Translations under genes and position numbers: made by a program | Notes under the pieces: model-generated | What the model was told of the DNA's origin: nothing | Databases searched by the model: none | The model's input: only the letters and a program-made list of their open reading frames with translations | Assembly: GCA_028292405.1 (NCBI GenBank) | Contig: JAQGMJ010000049.1 | Coordinates: 257,353 to 321,352, forward strand | From: Betaproteobacteria bacterium | GTDB lineage: Bacteria > Pseudomonadota > Gammaproteobacteria > Burkholderiales > JAEUOS01 | Direction of reading: 5' to 3' | Length of the DNA stretch: 64,000 nucleotides | In this document: one piece after another, positions 4,232 through 54,834 of the stretch | Position numbering within the stretch: the stretch's first letter is position 1 | Layout: each line of letters starts with the position of its first letter

Positions 4232-5023
4232 ATGAGCACTCCCAAGGGCGCGGCGCGCTCGATCGCCGATGTCGAGGGCGGCATCATCCTGGCCAACGTG
4301 GAAATTGCAGCGCCGCCCGAGCGCGTCTTCGCCGCCCTCACCACGCCCGAACAGCTTCTGCAGTGGTGGGGCGACGGCACCAGCTACCGCAGCACCGGCT
4401 GGGAAGTCGACCTGCGCCCCGGCGGCGCCTGGCGCGCCGAGGGCAAATCAGTGGACGGCAATGCCTACGAGGTCGGCGGCCGGTTCATCGAGGTAGATCC
4501 GCCGCGCAAGCTGGTGCAGACCTGGAAGCCTTCATGGTTCACGGGCGAGGAAACGCGCCTGACCTACCGCCTGGAGGCGATCGAAGGCGGCACCCGCCTG
4601 ACGGTGCGCCACGAAGGCTTTGCCGGCTTTCCGGATGCCTGCCGCGATCACACGTCCGGCTGGGAGAAGGTGCTCGGCTGGGTCGCAAGCTACGCAGCGC
4701 CGCAAGAGGAGCCGCGCTACTTCGTCGCCCGCCTGTTGCCGCCGCGCCCGACCTTTGCGCACGACATGAACGAAGAGGAAAAGGTGCTGATGGGCGAGCA
4801 CGCCGCCTACTACCGCGCACAGATGGCGCAGGGCAGAGTGGTGGTGTTCGGCCCGGTGGGCGACCCCGCCGGGCCCTGGGGTCTGGGCATCCTGCGCGCA
4901 CGCGACGAGGCGCAGGGGCGCGCTTTTACCGAGGAAGACCCCGTCCTGCTTTCGCGGCGCGGCTTTCGCTACGAATTGCTTCCGATGATGCGCGCGGTGC
5001 TTCCCGAGCAAGTGGGCGCCTGA
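4232..5023 (+). CDS. SRPBCC (AHSA1/Aha1-like) domain fused to a YciI-like domain
   Basis: N-terminal 'PPERVFAALTTPEQLLQWWG ... YRLEAIEGGTRLTVRHEGF' is typical of the AHSA1/SRPBCC fold. C-terminal 'YFVARLLPPRP...VVVFGPVGDP...GLGILRA' is YciI-like. ATG 4232 follows CTGGAGAAA. Confidence 0.7.
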   Translation: MSTPKGAARSIADVEGGIILANVEIAAPPERVFAALTTPEQLLQWWGDGTSYRSTGWEVDLRPGGAWRAEGKSVDGNAYEVGGRFIEVDPPRKLVQTWKPSWFTGEETRLTYRLEAIEGGTRLTVRHEGFAGFPDACRDHTSGWEKVLGWVASYAAPQEEPRYFVARLLPPRPTFAHDMNEEEKVLMGEHAAYYRAQMAQGRVVVFGPVGDPAGPWGLGILRARDEAQGRAFTEEDPVLLSRRGFRYELLPMMRAVLPEQVGA

Positions 5024-7280: not shown

Positions 7281-7371
7281 GGAGAGGTGGCAGAGTGGTC
7301 GAATGCGCCAGACTCGAAATCTGGTTTAGTCTCAATGGCTAACGTGGGTTCGAATCCCACCCTCTCCGCCA
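7281..7371 (+). tRNA. tRNA-Ser (anticodon CGA), encoded CCA
   Basis: Acceptor GGAGAGG/CCTCTCC. Anticodon arm CCAGA-CTCGAAA-TCTGG gives CGA. Long variable arm. T-loop GGTTCGAATCC. Confidence 0.9.
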
Positions 7372-20494: not shown

Positions 20495-20602
20495 CGCAAG
20501 GCCGGTTTTGCCGTGAGTGGAACACTAGTTGCTTGGTCAGCGTGACGTCGCCGGGACGTGCTGCCGCCTCCGTATAATCTCCCCACTATCCGAGCCTCCC
20601 TC

Positions 20603-21775
20603 ATGACCCTCTTTTCCCTGCGCAGGCTTGCCGCCGGCGGCGCGCTGGCGCTGGCGGCGCTCATCAGTGCCCCGGTCGCGCAAGCGCAGGCCCTGCACCC
20701 GCTCTCGCCGGCGTTTCTCGCGACGCTGAATAACGTCGACACCTCTTCCGATGAGATCGGCGCTTCGGTCATGGCCATCAAGAATGCGGACCTGACGTAT
20801 TCGATGTTCTCCCGCGGCCGCGTCGAGAAGGCCATTGCGAACATGGAGCAGCAGTTGCCGGCGCTGAAGGCGCAAACGGCCAGCCTGCGGCGCGAAGAGT
20901 CCTTGCGGGTGCTGCTGGCCATGCGCACGGCGTTTTCAGATGCGCAGCGCAATATCGGGTCGATCTCCGACATCCTGCACGGCGTCACCGTGCGCACCCC
21001 GGCGCAGGCGGACGCGCTCGACAAGCTGCTGGCGCGGCTCGATAGTGCCACCGCGCAACTGGACGCGGCGCTCAAGCGCTTCGACAGCGGGGCGGTGGCG
21101 CTGACGGCGCGGGCTTCGTCCTCATCTGCCCCTGCCCCTGGCCCTGCCTCCGCCCCCGCCGCCGGGCAAGCGCAGGTGCCGATGTCTCCCGCCTCCGTCC
21201 AGGCACAGGCAGGCGCCTCATCCGCGCAAGCGCAGGCCGCAGCTACCCCCGGGCAGGCAGCGGCATCGTCCGCATCCGGCGCCGCGCAAGCGCCGGGCGC
21301 ATTTGCCTCCGCCCCCGCCTCCACGCAGGCGGCGCTGCGCCCGCTGCCGCCGAACCTTCTCGCCACGCTGAAAGACGTAGACACCTCTTCCGACGAAATG
21401 GCGGCTTCGGTGACGGCGGTGAAGAATGCGGACCTGACGTATTCGCTGTTCTCCCGCGGCCGCGTCGAGAAGGTGATCGCGCGCATGGAGAAGCAGTTGC
21501 CGATGCTCAAGGCGCAGACGGCGGATCTGCGGCGCGATGAGTCGCTGGGCGTGCTGCTGTCGATGCGCACGGCCTTCTCGGAGGTGCAACGCGACGTCGG
21601 CTCGGTCTCCGAAATCCTGCACGGCGTCACCGTGCGCACCCCCGCGCAGGCCGACGAGCTGGACCGCCTGCTCACCCACCTGGACGCCGCCGCCGCCCAC
21701 CTGGACGCGGCGCTCAAACGCTTCGACACCGGCGCCCTGGCGATGATCGAGTTGCTGGACAAGCCCGCCCGCTAG
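20603..21775 (+). CDS. Secreted hypothetical protein with two tandem 138-aa domain copies
   Basis: Signal peptide 'MTLFSLRRLAAGGALALAALISAPVAQAQ'. Repeats at 20690..21103 and 21332..21745 are separated by an A/S/P/Q low-complexity linker. Confidence 0.65.
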   Translation: MTLFSLRRLAAGGALALAALISAPVAQAQALHPLSPAFLATLNNVDTSSDEIGASVMAIKNADLTYSMFSRGRVEKAIANMEQQLPALKAQTASLRREESLRVLLAMRTAFSDAQRNIGSISDILHGVTVRTPAQADALDKLLARLDSATAQLDAALKRFDSGAVALTARASSSSAPAPGPASAPAAGQAQVPMSPASVQAQAGASSAQAQAAATPGQAAASSASGAAQAPGAFASAPASTQAALRPLPPNLLATLKDVDTSSDEMAASVTAVKNADLTYSLFSRGRVEKVIARMEKQLPMLKAQTADLRRDESLGVLLSMRTAFSEVQRDVGSVSEILHGVTVRTPAQADELDRLLTHLDAAAAHLDAALKRFDTGALAMIELLDKPAR

Positions 21776-22155: not shown

Positions 22156-22521
22156 ATGAAAACCACCGTCAAAATCCTGATCGCCGCCGCCGTCACTTCG
22201 GTGGCCGCCACTTTCTCCACGGGTGCCTCCGCCCAGTCGCTGTTCGAGCTGCACGAGCAGCACAAGGCGCAGCTGTTCAACTTCCTGTTCGGCCACCATG
22301 GCCCGAATGTGGCTATCAACGTGGGTCCGTCGTATCAGCCGGCATATCAGCCGGCATACCAGCCCGCGCCGGTCTACCAGGCGCCGCCGGTTTATGTGCA
22401 GCCCTACGGCGGCTACGGCGAATATCGCGGCCCGCGCGGGTACGCTTATGGGCGCCGTGACTACCGTGGCGATGATGGTCGCCGCGACTATGGACATCGC
22501 GAAGGCCAGTACGGCCGTTAA
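22156..22521 (+). CDS. Small secreted Y/P/Q/R/G-rich hypothetical protein
   Basis: ATG follows AAGTAGGAG. Signal peptide 'MKTTVKILIAAAVTSVAATFSTGASAQ'. 'QPAYQPAYQPAPVYQAPPVYVQPYGGYGEYRGPRGYAYGRRDYRGDDGRRDY' is low complexity. Confidence 0.55.
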   Translation: MKTTVKILIAAAVTSVAATFSTGASAQSLFELHEQHKAQLFNFLFGHHGPNVAINVGPSYQPAYQPAYQPAPVYQAPPVYVQPYGGYGEYRGPRGYAYGRRDYRGDDGRRDYGHREGQYGR

Positions 22522-22567: not shown

Positions 22568-22721
22568 GGAGGCGCGTGGCGTCCTTTGAAGACTTGCGCC
22601 TACTAGAACAAATGCTTTACAAGCGGCCGCGCGCCGCGTATGTTTGAAGCCAGCGGGGGCAACTGAGTCGGTTGCTCTTTGCTGGCTTTGTTATTGGTGC
22701 TTGCGGTCGCGTGGCGATGGT

Positions 22722-23275
22722 GCTGCGCTGCATGTTCAGGAATTAAAGCAGCCCGGGCAATCCGGCAAGCCGCGACTTTTTCTGTGAAGCCAAGCCGCTG
22801 CCCCATGCAGCCATGACTACAACTGTGTTTATCGGCGAAGGGCGCTGCCCGGCGGATTCGGCAAGCGGCGAATTTTTCTGAAAGATATGGTTTTGTCAGG
22901 TTGGCTTCGCAAGCCGACCACAACTGTGTTCAGGGAGCAAGCTGCCCGGTGGGTTCGGCAAGCAGCGGAATTTCTGAAAAAGATATGGTCCCCAAGGGGA
23001 CTTCGTTGAGGGCGTTTTGTCAGCTTGCGGGTTTGCGCGGTCGACCACAACTGTATTTTCAGGGATGAGGGCTGCCCGGCAGGTTCGGCAAGCAGCGAGT
23101 TTTTCTGAAAAAGATATGGTTTTATCAGGTTGGCTTCGCAAGCCCACCACAACTGTGTTCAGGGAGCAAGCTGCCCGGTGGGTTCGGCGAGCGGCGGAAT
23201 TTCTGAAAGATAGGGTTTCCCAAGGAGACTTCTTTCAGGTCGTTTTATCAGGGCGGCTTGGAGATTTGTTTTTCG
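22722..23275. repeat. Higher-order tandem repeat array (alternating units of about 101 and 127 bp; 4 good copies plus 1 degenerate)
   Basis: The core ACAACTGTG recurs at 22819, 22920, 23047 and 23149 (spacing 101/127/102). Copies 1/3 and 2/4 are most similar to each other, giving a period of about 229 bp. A degenerate copy starts near 22722. Confidence 0.8.
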
Positions 23276-23322
23276 TCTATATTTAAGATCGCTATAGTTC
23301 TCCCGGTCACCAAGGACACTCT

Positions 23323-23988
23323 TTGAAACTCAACCCCCCACTCGAAACCTTCCTCTTTTCCAAAGACCTCGACCAACTCCTCGAAGCACGCCAGGCCATC
23401 AAGGCGCTGGACGAGGACGACGAGGCCGTGGTGCGCGCGGTGCTCAAGGAATGGAGCAACCCGCAGTCCGTCGCCAATCTGCTGTTCCACCCGAGCATGA
23501 TCCCGGCGGAGATCCGCGTGCCCAGTTTGTTGCGCGGGCTGCGGGAGCGGGGCGTGATGTATTACGTGCTGGCGGCCATCGTCGGCTTCGGCGGCATGGT
23601 GCCGGAGTTGACGGAGGGTGATCGCGAGGAGGTGGCGGCGCTGCTGCTGGAGTTCCTGCCGAACAGCACCGGGGTGCTGGCGCAGCGCGCCTCGGTGACC
23701 TTGAGCGGCGTGGCGCGGGAGGCGGACGCGCCGGCCATTTTTTCGCTGCTCGACCACGAGGACGATACGGCGCGCCACAACCTGCGCGCCTGGCTGTTTC
23801 GCACCTTCGAGAAGCCGGGCGTGGAGGCCTTCACCGCCGCCGCCGCGCGCAGCACGCTGGATGCGGAGGCCCAGGCGGCGCTGGTGCGCGAGTTCGCCGA
23901 GATCAAGCCGGGCGCGCCGCCGGAGGTAAAGCGCAAGCTGCTCACGCTGTTCAGCTACATTCCGAATCTCGAAGAGGTGAAGGTTTGA
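23323..23988 (+). CDS. Hypothetical all-alpha (HEAT/ARM-like) protein
   Basis: 221-aa ORF with a TTG start 8 nt after AAGGA. Helical repeat-like composition ('VVRAVLKEW', 'LLRGLRERG', 'VAALLLEFL'). No known motif. Confidence 0.55.
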   Translation: MKLNPPLETFLFSKDLDQLLEARQAIKALDEDDEAVVRAVLKEWSNPQSVANLLFHPSMIPAEIRVPSLLRGLRERGVMYYVLAAIVGFGGMVPELTEGDREEVAALLLEFLPNSTGVLAQRASVTLSGVAREADAPAIFSLLDHEDDTARHNLRAWLFRTFEKPGVEAFTAAAARSTLDAEAQAALVREFAEIKPGAPPEVKRKLLTLFSYIPNLEEVKV

Positions 23989-35703: not shown

Positions 35704-35989
35704 TGGCACGACGACGCGGCTCGCCCGGCAAAGGTCAAGCGCGAAGTGGCCAAAGGTCTCGTCTGGCTGGCTGCGACGTTTAAATAAATAAACGCGCGGC
35801 GGGCTGCGCATACCATGGAAGCAAGCTCCCAAGTCTGTTGACATGCGCTCTCCGGGATTAAGCCCCGGAGATGACTACTCCCCAATGAACGGAACGGAGT
35901 TTAGCAGAATCCGCTGCATTCCCGCTTTTTCGTCGGGGTTTCGGCAATGGAATCGACTGGCTCTGCCAGCGATTCCATGCAAATCAGGC

Positions 35990-41793: not shown

Positions 41794-41869
41794 GGTTGGC
41801 GCGATTGGATTCGAACCAACGACCCCTACCATGTCAAGGTAGTGCTCTAACCAACTGAGCTACGCGCCA
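41794..41869 (-). tRNA. tRNA-Val (anticodon GAC), encoded CCA
   Basis: Reverse complement TGGCGCGTAGCTCAGTTGGTTAGAGCACTACCTTGACATGGTAGGGGTCGTTGGTTCGAATCCAATCGCGCCAACCA. Anticodon loop TTGACAT. Confidence 0.9.
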
Positions 41870-54217: not shown

Positions 54218-54783
54218 CCGAAGACGGAGCAGCGGACAAAGCCGCGGACGAAGCGGCGAAACTGCTCGCCGAGGCCGATCTGCTGGTCAGCCAGGCCGAT
54301 TGCAGCGCCGCCACCGCGCGCGTGGCGCGGGAGATCAAGGCCAGGGTGGGCAATGATTTTCCGCTGGTGCTGGCGGTCATGGGCGGTGCGGTGGTGTTTG
54401 CCGGCCAGTTGCTGCCGCAACTCGACTTCCCGCTTGAATTCGATTATGTGCACGTCTCGCGCTACGGCGACAAGCTCTCCGGCGGCAAGCTCAACTGGAA
54501 GGTCGAACCGAAGGAAAGCGTGCAGGGACGCACGGTGCTGGTGATCGACGATATTCTCGACGAGGGCGAGACCATGGCCGCGATCCGCGAACGCGTGATG
54601 GCCCTGGGCGCCGCCGCCTGCTATGCGGCGGTATTCTGCGAAAAGACCCTGGACAAACCGAAGCCGACCAGGCCGGATTTTCTCGGTGTCACCGTGCCGA
54701 ACCGCTATGTCTTCGGCTACGGCATGGACGCCGCCGGCCTGTGGCGCAACCTGCCGGCCGTGTACGCGCTTAAAGGTTCGTAG
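54214..54783 (+). CDS. hpt: Hypoxanthine-guanine phosphoribosyltransferase-like PRTase
   Basis: PRPP-binding '[14 protein letters not shown]'. ATGA overlap with the galU stop. Confidence 0.8.
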
Positions 54784-54834
54784 ACTCAAAGGTCCGCAAA
54801 CAAAGATTCGTAAACTCAAGGCCTCGCAAGCAAT

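Follow-up and report, generated by a model that had tools for sequence, protein, structure and literature searches.

The stretch of DNA analysed here, hereafter the window, comprises 64,000 nucleotides (nt) of contig JAQGMJ010000049.1 from an uncultured 'Betaproteobacteria bacterium' metagenome-assembled genome (MAG), and contains at positions 22718–23262 an array of four good tandem repeat units preceded by a degenerate one, 48 bp downstream of which starts the gene for a protein of 221 amino acids (aa). This array is a lineage-specific tandem amplification of a structured RNA module of about 100 nt, and it probably lies within a 5′ leader of about 680 nt that runs on the + strand from a promoter at 22616–22644 into the 221-aa gene. 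It constitutes a new sequence family, absent from Rfam, of a general kind that is already known, namely transcribed intergenic hairpin repeats of variable copy number. The reading we favour, tentatively and with a probability of roughly 45%, is that array and gene are transcribed together, the array forming a modular 5′ leader that acts in cis on the mRNA of the gene. It is favoured because the units are restricted to one gene in four loci, because their hairpins covary and belong to the + strand, and because a single conserved promoter is oriented in the same way as the gene.

An earlier note on this DNA, made from the sequence alone, had described a higher-order array, and all of its anchors were found where it had placed them: ACAACTGT at 22819, 22920, 23047 and 23149, TTTCTGAAA at 22875, 22971, 23102 and 23200, and GTTTTRTCAG at 22890, 23014, 23119 and 23242. 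The period of 229 bp that it proposed was recovered by a repeat search as a 99-nt segment at 96% identity, 229 bp apart. Two details need correction, as the spacer between GCTGCCCGG and GGCRAGC is 7 nt long and not 8, and the third anchor reads ACAACTGTA rather than ending in GTG. None of these motifs occurs elsewhere in the window, in which each conserved block of the array forms a family of four copies and in which the array is the only sizeable non-coding tandem repeat.

For comparison, 15 units were gathered, and a covariance model (R1) was built from 14 of them, taken from four loci with the window's own units included. The good window units match this model with E values from 1e-11 to 1e-18, and chance is therefore excluded; all matches in the array are in direct orientation. 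Unit 1 (22816–22916, + strand, 101 nt; 83.2 bits, E = 8e-16) folds into a hairpin 1 and a hairpin 2, the latter at 22899–22919 (GGUUGGCUUCGCAAGCCGACC), and unit 2 (22917–23043, + strand, 127 nt; 71.7 bits) is a standard unit carrying in addition a mini-hairpin module of 25 nt (22989–23013, + strand; GUCCCCAAGGGGAC plus UUCGUUGAGGGC), which appears as extra columns in the alignment. Unit 3 (23044–23145, + strand, 102 nt; 95.2 bits, E = 2e-18) is, on the evidence of the 229-bp repeat, a paralogue of unit 1, and the alignment makes unit 4 (23146–23262, + strand; 65 bits), the last, a paralogue of unit 2, with its own mini-hairpin at 23217–23241 but without a proper hairpin 2. The 5′ degenerate copy of the earlier note is also real: this unit 0 (22718–22815, + strand) has kept the inner hairpin and lost the ACCACA block and hairpin 2, giving a partial match to the model at 22737–22784 (E = 1.4e-4).

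The alternation of 101, 127, 102 and 127 nt thus has its source in the mini-hairpin inserted into every second unit (2 and 4), and in the history of the array in the window the mini-hairpin was inserted first, the resulting 229-bp dimer being duplicated later and so recently that its two copies are still 96% identical. Tandem Repeats Finder, proposed in the earlier note for fixing the unit boundaries, missed the array; the probable reason is that only two copies of the 229-bp period exist and that the units of about 100 nt differ by a 25-nt indel. Neighbouring units abut and are homologous along their full length, so that there are no repeats separated by unique spacers and, as the note had held, the array is not CRISPR-like. 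Coding potential was rejected as well, the unit lengths not being multiples of three and the units falling into all three frames.

Contigs encoding close homologues of the 221-aa protein were compared with the window, and three of them carry the same unit family: L238 (also L123; protein 92% identical to that of the window) with three good units and a degenerate 5′ one, L240 (also L140; protein in the 90% cluster of the window's protein) with four units, and L124 (87% identical) with three units and a partial one abutting the ribosome-binding site. In a further locus, L236, the protein is also 87% identical and the upstream Tyr/Pro-rich gene is shared with the window, and there is no array but a spacer of about 160 bp; homologues of about 50% identity are likewise without it. 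The units were found solely upstream of orthologues of this one gene, in four independent loci including that of the window, and the comparison between relatives suggested in the earlier note showed a copy number ranging from none (L236) to three or four good units, with a degenerate or partial copy at the edge of the array in three loci. In short-read assemblies of this organism the contigs end precisely where the array lies.

Outside these loci nothing further was obtained. The covariance model detected no other copy in the window, a metagenome-wide scan with the inner-hairpin pattern returned 107 stretches in which the rest of the unit was present only on two contigs of this locus, and viral contigs and plasmids contained nothing similar to the units. 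A scan of a genome collection with GCTGCCCGGNNNNTTCGGCRAGC yielded 119 stretches, all of them single chance matches without the rest of the unit, this pattern being too generic for GC-rich genomes. In the sequence searched the array is thus a locus-specific feature, and the case that the earlier note had named as refuting it, a generic dispersed repeat of constant copy number, does not fit these data.

Two side observations concern this group of loci. The mini-hairpin module, which can be written as GUCCCC-NNN-GGGGAY followed by a UUCNUUCGGG-like sequence (UUCGUU...), is found not only in window units 2 and 4, since one or two related copies lie 5′ of the arrays in L238 (1767–1815) and L140 (about 100–125). 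In L122, where the protein is 86% identical, the same site 5′ of the orthologous gene is occupied (4380–4910) by an unrelated array, whose units of about 96 nt are composed of the 12-mer TTGGCGSYCTTG in its two orientations and form, each of them, a long hairpin (–54 kcal/mol, z = –4.8) that is equally stable on both strands; this array is followed by TGGCAAAAC in three copies and CTTGGCAYCC in 3.5 copies. Two different hairpin-repeat families are therefore found at one intergenic site among close relatives.

Read 5′ to 3′ on the + strand, a unit consists of an ACCACAAYUGUGKUU block, the 5′ strand of a lower stem (UUUCAGGGA), an internal loop, an apex, the 3′ strand of the stem (UUUCCUGAAA), a linker and hairpin 2. 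The apical hairpin is almost invariant (GCNGC-CCGG, a 5-nt loop, YCGG, a CAA bulge and GCNGC), the linker is first A-rich and then U-rich (AAGAUAUGGUUUUAUCA, also given as GAAAAAGAUAUGGUUUUAUCA), and hairpin 2, which is formed at 11 of the 12 unit junctions, has a conserved base (GGUUG...CGACC) and a hypervariable top. The two strands of the lower stem covary between units. The motif TTTCTGAAA, noted earlier as a palindrome, is indeed present at the sites listed above, but it is not conserved as a palindrome in the orthologous arrays: in each window unit it is the 3′ strand of the lower RNA stem, and its position is taken elsewhere by TTTCCTGAAA, TTTCCCGAAA or TTTCCGGAAA, with the 5′ strand of the stem changing too (e.g., UUCCGGGAA / UUCCGGAA in unit 3 of L124).

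In a raw or trimmed MAFFT alignment the structure described above pairs in 81% of the cells, as against 28–54% when the 3′ partner is slid by one to three columns, and in the covariance-model alignment the corresponding values are 92% and 28–52%. Seven pairs in the latter alignment have changed on both sides, and the observed covariation score is reached by none of 500 shuffles, these counts coming from 14 kindred sequences (paralogues and orthologues) in an alignment that is partly fitted to the structure. When RNAalifold was run on the plain MAFFT alignment, the inner hairpin with the apex was all that emerged, because indels shift the outer stems out of register, a problem that was solved by realignment with the covariance model. 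An outermost stem, 'tier C' (AACUGUGUU / GAUAUGGUU), had been predicted for window units 1 and 3 and was dropped, as only 70% of its cells pair and several of its columns are mostly unpaired.

The structure belongs to the + strand, which is the sense strand of the downstream gene, and this favours RNA over a symmetric DNA palindrome. The assignment follows from an excess of G.U/U.G over A.C/C.A cells (37 vs 11), with one pair being G.U in 12 of 14 units and hence a C.A mismatch on the other strand. Folding energies point the same way: added up over the units, the minimum free energy of hairpin 1 comes to –372 kcal/mol for the + strand as against –293 kcal/mol for the – strand, and the 681-nt leader as a whole reaches –269 kcal/mol (z = –2.6) when folded as the + strand, compared with –207 kcal/mol (z = –1.3) as the – strand. 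In the window and the orthologous loci, the covariance model finds matches in the arrays only and on the + strand only (E = 1e-8 to 1e-20). The search of Rfam that the earlier note had recommended gave no match in the arrays even at permissive thresholds (E ≤ 10 for the window and E ≤ 1 for the orthologous loci), Csr/Rsm families included, and no tRNA- or tmRNA-like element was reported by ARAGORN.

The adjacent gene provides a measure of how fast the units change. Its divergence at third codon positions amounts to 17% for L238 versus L240 and 31% for the window versus L124. The units, for their part, show 84–90% identity between orthologues and 66–90% for any two taken from whichever lineages. 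Across lineages with synonymous divergence of up to 31%, the apex and the flanking blocks hardly vary, and compensatory substitutions preserve the pairing of the stems while the units drift. The pattern is that of a constrained core within a freely varying scaffold, which argues against a purely neutral minisatellite and is compatible with a self-propagating element.

Upstream of the array, a sigma-70-type promoter (TTTACA-N17-TATGTT; 22616–22644, + strand) was found by scanning, and scans of L238 and L240 recovered it there too, as the sole promoter-like site conserved between the scanned loci, with one per locus (TTTACA-N17-TAT(G/C)TT on the + strand). In an alignment of the four array-bearing loci both hexamers are invariant and the 17-nt spacer varies in sequence and is fixed in length, the pattern that would be expected of a working promoter. 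In the window it precedes the degenerate unit 0 by about 70 bp, and in L238 and L240 its distance to the first unit is about 120 bp. Immediately after it, at 22650–22697 (+ strand), there is a leader hairpin (CCAGC...GCUGG, –22 kcal/mol) followed by a U-rich run (CUUUGUUAUUGG), which is a candidate leader terminator or attenuator; L240 has kept the base of its stem (CCAGC/GCUGG) with a different interior and U6, and the feature is harder to recognise in L238 and L124. Promoter, leader hairpin and array co-occur, and all three are missing in L236. A comparison of the upstream promoter with the unit junctions revealed no significant likeness (nhmmer E = 1.2 over 12 nt). The promoter and leader hairpin alone (22616–22697) would yield an RNA of only about 45–50 nt; the element may be an attenuator for array and gene, or a very small RNA in its own right.

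Three arrays (window, L238 and L240) were scanned for the sigma-70 consensus, and no conserved promoter was found within the units on either strand. A – strand site of this type in unit 1 of the window is not repeated in other units or loci, and the spacing between GTTTTRTCAGG and ACCACA varies from 7 to 21 nt, which excludes a promoter of fixed spacing across these blocks; promoters in each unit were therefore rejected. The apical hairpin is trailed by only 3–5 U after a gap of 2–4 nt, and no strong terminator lies between the array and the gene in L238 and L240. Between the last unit and the gene, the window contains an AT-rich spacer and 5′ untranslated region (23263–23322, + strand; GC down to 0.46) with a Shine-Dalgarno sequence, AAGGA, at 23312–23316 ahead of the TTG start. 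Two further observations were made at this site. In the window (23312–23325) and in the orthologous loci, the Shine-Dalgarno sequence can pair with the TTG start region in a small hairpin (AAGGA-NNN-UCUUU), one pair of which is strengthened in L240 by a U-to-C change, and which may occlude the ribosome-binding site independently of the array. L238 (2345–2377) has an upstream open reading frame of 10 codons (ATG AAA CTG TGT AGT TCT CTC GGT CAG ATT TAA), the stop of which overlaps the Shine-Dalgarno sequence of the 221-aa gene; the window has no ATG there.

According to the leader reading, transcription would start at the conserved promoter and continue through the array into the gene, and the arrays would grow and shrink through unequal recombination. 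The hairpins would then act in cis on the leader, either as several copies of one recognition hairpin for an RNA-binding factor or, alternatively, as stabilising or pausing stem-loops, and would set the read-through, stability or translation of the downstream mRNA, with the strength of the effect tuned by the number of units. A more specific version, in which the bulged apical hairpin is a dedicated recognition site and the array a copy-number-tunable platform for an RNA-binding protein, perhaps the downstream ARM/HEAT-like solenoid itself acting in an autoregulatory manner, we regard as distinctly improbable. Such a pairing of a solenoid protein with tandem hairpins may, by analogy, functionally recall the eukaryotic PUF proteins, and we know of no autoregulatory pairing of this kind described in bacteria.

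Several of the results weigh against the leader reading. The covariation was counted on related sequences and with partial use of the structure itself, and the orthologous units drift overall about as fast as synonymous sites, so that only their core is constrained. That an unrelated array occupies this site in L122 is explained equally well by a hotspot of repeat expansion and by selection. The leader hairpin and U-run right after the promoter could halt most transcription ahead of the array, and in the window a weak terminator-like site (23233–23263) is found between the array and the gene. L236 and all loci with homologues of about 50% identity have the gene but lack the array, and any regulation is therefore dispensable, the protein and the array not being obligate partners.

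In a first alternative, the array may be a passenger repeat, i.e., an intergenic variable number tandem repeat (VNTR) of the BRE, MIRU or ERIC type, expanding by slippage or recombination or through past mobility, at most incidentally co-transcribed and without a dedicated function, its hairpins being inherited from the founding unit. The differences in copy number among close relatives, the second hairpin array in L122, the rate at which orthologous units diverge and the degeneration of the edge units would all be accommodated. The MIRU VNTRs of mycobacteria, which occupy about 40 loci and often carry small open reading frames overlapping the flanking genes, resemble the array in having units of about 50–100 bp between co-oriented genes and a copy number that varies between strains; they differ from it in that the present array is at a single locus, maintains no frame and has a conserved RNA structure.

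Repeats of about 90 bp with variable tandem copy number are also known within the Betaproteobacteria, and the nearest parallel is the Beta-proteobacterial repeat element (BRE; Hot et al. 2011, PMC3110155), an intergenic element of about 90 bp in variable tandem number, with a consensus beginning TTTTTTTTTGGCCGCGGGCCGCCCAAGGCAAAAAAGCCCCC, flanked by T-runs, having 69% GC and present at 8–29 sites per genome, one copy of which is expressed as an RNA of about 80 nt, BprJ1. BRE and the array share their occurrence in Betaproteobacteria, intergenic units of about 90–100 bp that follow one another head to tail with hardly any spacer or none, hairpin-forming GC-rich cores and tandem copies that vary between related genomes, whereas the present unit has 46–57% GC, its own upstream promoter and strand-specific covarying stems, and was seen at only this locus in the 64-kb window and the metagenome scan, as opposed to the dispersal of BRE over many loci. 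Membership of the BRE family was rejected: six BRE sequences published with PMC3110155 were run against the window, L122, L124, L236, L238 and L240, singly with blastn-short and together as an nhmmer profile, and gave only chance matches of 10–14 nt and a best profile E value of 2.6, and the L122 units proved likewise dissimilar. The near-invariant apex with its compensatory stem changes, the strand-specific G.U excess, the lack of dispersed copies in the window or among metagenome contigs and the conserved promoter that always accompanies the array all speak against a passenger, and we consider this explanation unlikely, while holding it to deserve serious attention.

Somewhat more doubtful is the possibility that the units are trans-acting small RNAs (sRNAs) of about 100 nt, released from a polycistronic precursor by cutting in the AU-rich linkers or transcribed from separate genes. 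Known tandem sRNA families such as LhrC1-5, NsiR1, RsmX and PrrF1/2 have their own promoter and intrinsic terminator for each copy. The array is like them in placing several structured RNA units of about 100 nt side by side in one intergenic region, and it differs in that the single units have no conserved promoter and no convincing terminator. The earlier note's suggestion of an RNA-level role is thus upheld by the covarying, strand-specific hairpins, but its 'tandem sRNA gene family', with a promoter and terminator for each unit, finds no support. A weak 5-bp hairpin followed by UUUU (CCUGA...UCAGG), resembling a terminator, does occur in three units of L238 and L240, but it is not conserved in the window or L124.

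Processing of a common precursor has been proposed for the six-unit REP325/BIME cluster of E. coli (naRNA1-6; Qian et al. 2015, PMC4550694), in which six tandem two-hairpin units between two genes are transcribed throughout and appear as separate RNAs, although a single promoter with subsequent processing is not established there (PMC4550694). The present locus also has several near-identical two-hairpin units between two genes, with single-stranded A/U-rich linkers between the modules and a dedicated promoter, and the detection of BprJ1 as an 80-nt RNA offers a further precedent for an sRNA. REP elements, by comparison, are palindromes of about 35 nt dispersed over hundreds of sites, acting as DNA cruciforms or as RNA in either orientation, whereas the array has longer hairpins with bulges, which fold preferentially on the + strand and are restricted to a single locus. 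No conserved single-stranded seed is evident in the units except ACCACAAYUGUG, and their distribution is very narrow, both of which tell against a trans-acting role.

A role at the level of DNA appears improbable. Here the near-palindrome ACCACA-NN-TGTGGT, recurring every 100 bp or so, would form a phased operator array for a dimeric protein, or the units would be cruciform or single-stranded DNA targets as in REP/RAYT systems. ACCACA is invariant in 13 of 14 units, the palindrome is a perfect one of 14 bp in unit 2 of L238 and units 3 and 4 of L124, the spacing is regular (84–107 bp) and the last L124 copy stands directly before the ribosome-binding site; the right half-site, however, is poorly conserved (TGTGTT, TGTAGT, TGTATT, TGGTTT), no regulator gene is conserved beside the array, and the covarying stems and the strand bias of G.U pairs would be left unexplained. 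Assignment to REP/BIME (REPIN) was rejected, the units being in direct orientation only, with no copy elsewhere in the window and strand-asymmetric G.U pairing, and neither a RAYT or transposase gene nor dispersed copies were found.

Highly improbable, finally, is a sequestering RNA, whether a sponge of the CsrB/RsmZ type directed at CsrA/RsmA or a counterpart, with long units, of the type III antitoxin repeats that would target the protein encoded downstream. In most units GGA does stand at a fixed position atop the covarying stem, and in two of them CAGGGAUG matches the CsrA consensus obtained by systematic evolution of ligands by exponential enrichment (SELEX); the sponge was nevertheless rejected, as GGA is not enriched (observed vs expected: 10 vs 10.1 in the window, 9 vs 6.7 in L238, 4 vs 6.4 in L240 and 4 vs 4.9 in L124) and the Csr/Rsm families of Rfam gave no match. 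Type III antitoxin arrays (ToxI, CptI, TenpI) consist of a promoter, tandem direct RNA repeats of 34–40 nt and a protein gene on one strand, and the order of promoter, repeats and gene on one strand in the present locus recalls toxIN. The assignment fails because of the unit length (84–127 nt rather than about 36 nt), because of the protein family, the protein being an alpha-solenoid without a defence- or toxin-family match and no endoribonuclease of the ToxN/AbiQ/CptN/TenpN type, and above all because co-occurrence is not obligate: an obligate antitoxin cannot be reconciled with a gene that stands without an array in L236 (protein 87% identical) and in the loci with proteins of about 50% identity, and the lack of the array in L236 largely refutes this version.

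The 221-aa gene (MDB5805982.1; 23323–23988, + strand) is the one gene retained beside the array in all four independent array-bearing loci. The 'three-gene cluster' of the earlier note is not a conserved operon, since the genes 3′ of the 221-aa gene differ between orthologous loci. The protein has no match in Pfam, NCBIfam or PADLOC. Its AlphaFold model (predicted local distance difference test score, pLDDT, 90.6) is an all-alpha solenoid, and its nearest folds in the Protein Data Bank (PDB), with weak E-values, are importin-alpha, designed ARM repeats and HEAT-like repeat proteins, in agreement with the HEAT-like character attributed to it in the earlier note. As judged from the model, this predicted ARM/HEAT-like fold is generic and gives no functional lead.

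Other features of the window were recorded in passing. Directly 5′ of the locus, in the window (22156–22521) as in L236 and L238, there is a conserved gene for a small protein that is predicted to be secreted, has a high content of Tyr, Pro, Gly and Arg (YQPA / PVYQ repeats) and is without a family match, and at 20558–21775 one for a predicted secreted protein of 405 aa, with two halves of about 110 residues that are clearly homologous to each other, a low-complexity linker rich in Ala, Pro, Ser and Gln, and no convincing family match. A manganese (yybP-ykoY) riboswitch lies at 35766–35897 on the – strand, with 46.1 bits just above the Rfam gathering threshold of 45, and tRNA genes are located at 7281–7368 (+ strand) and 41796–41869 (– strand). 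Tandem Repeats Finder reported at 54772–54833 a 30-nt unit (AAAGATTCGTAAACTCAAAGGCCCGCAAAC) in 2.1 copies with sub-periods of 14–16 nt, which could be short protein-binding repeats.

The value of the finding is limited by a very narrow distribution, the array being confined to a handful of uncultured relatives, and by an associated gene without a functional lead. Within these bounds, it provides a second family of tandem hairpin repeats of about 100 nt in Betaproteobacteria, unrelated in sequence to the BRE of Bordetella, and its invariant CCGG-loop-CCGG hairpin with the CAA bulge is a well-defined bait for a binding factor. If transcribed as proposed, the array would be a natural case in which the number of leader modules varies between close relatives (none, three or four good units), and this variation offers a simple test of whether the number of leader elements tunes gene expression.

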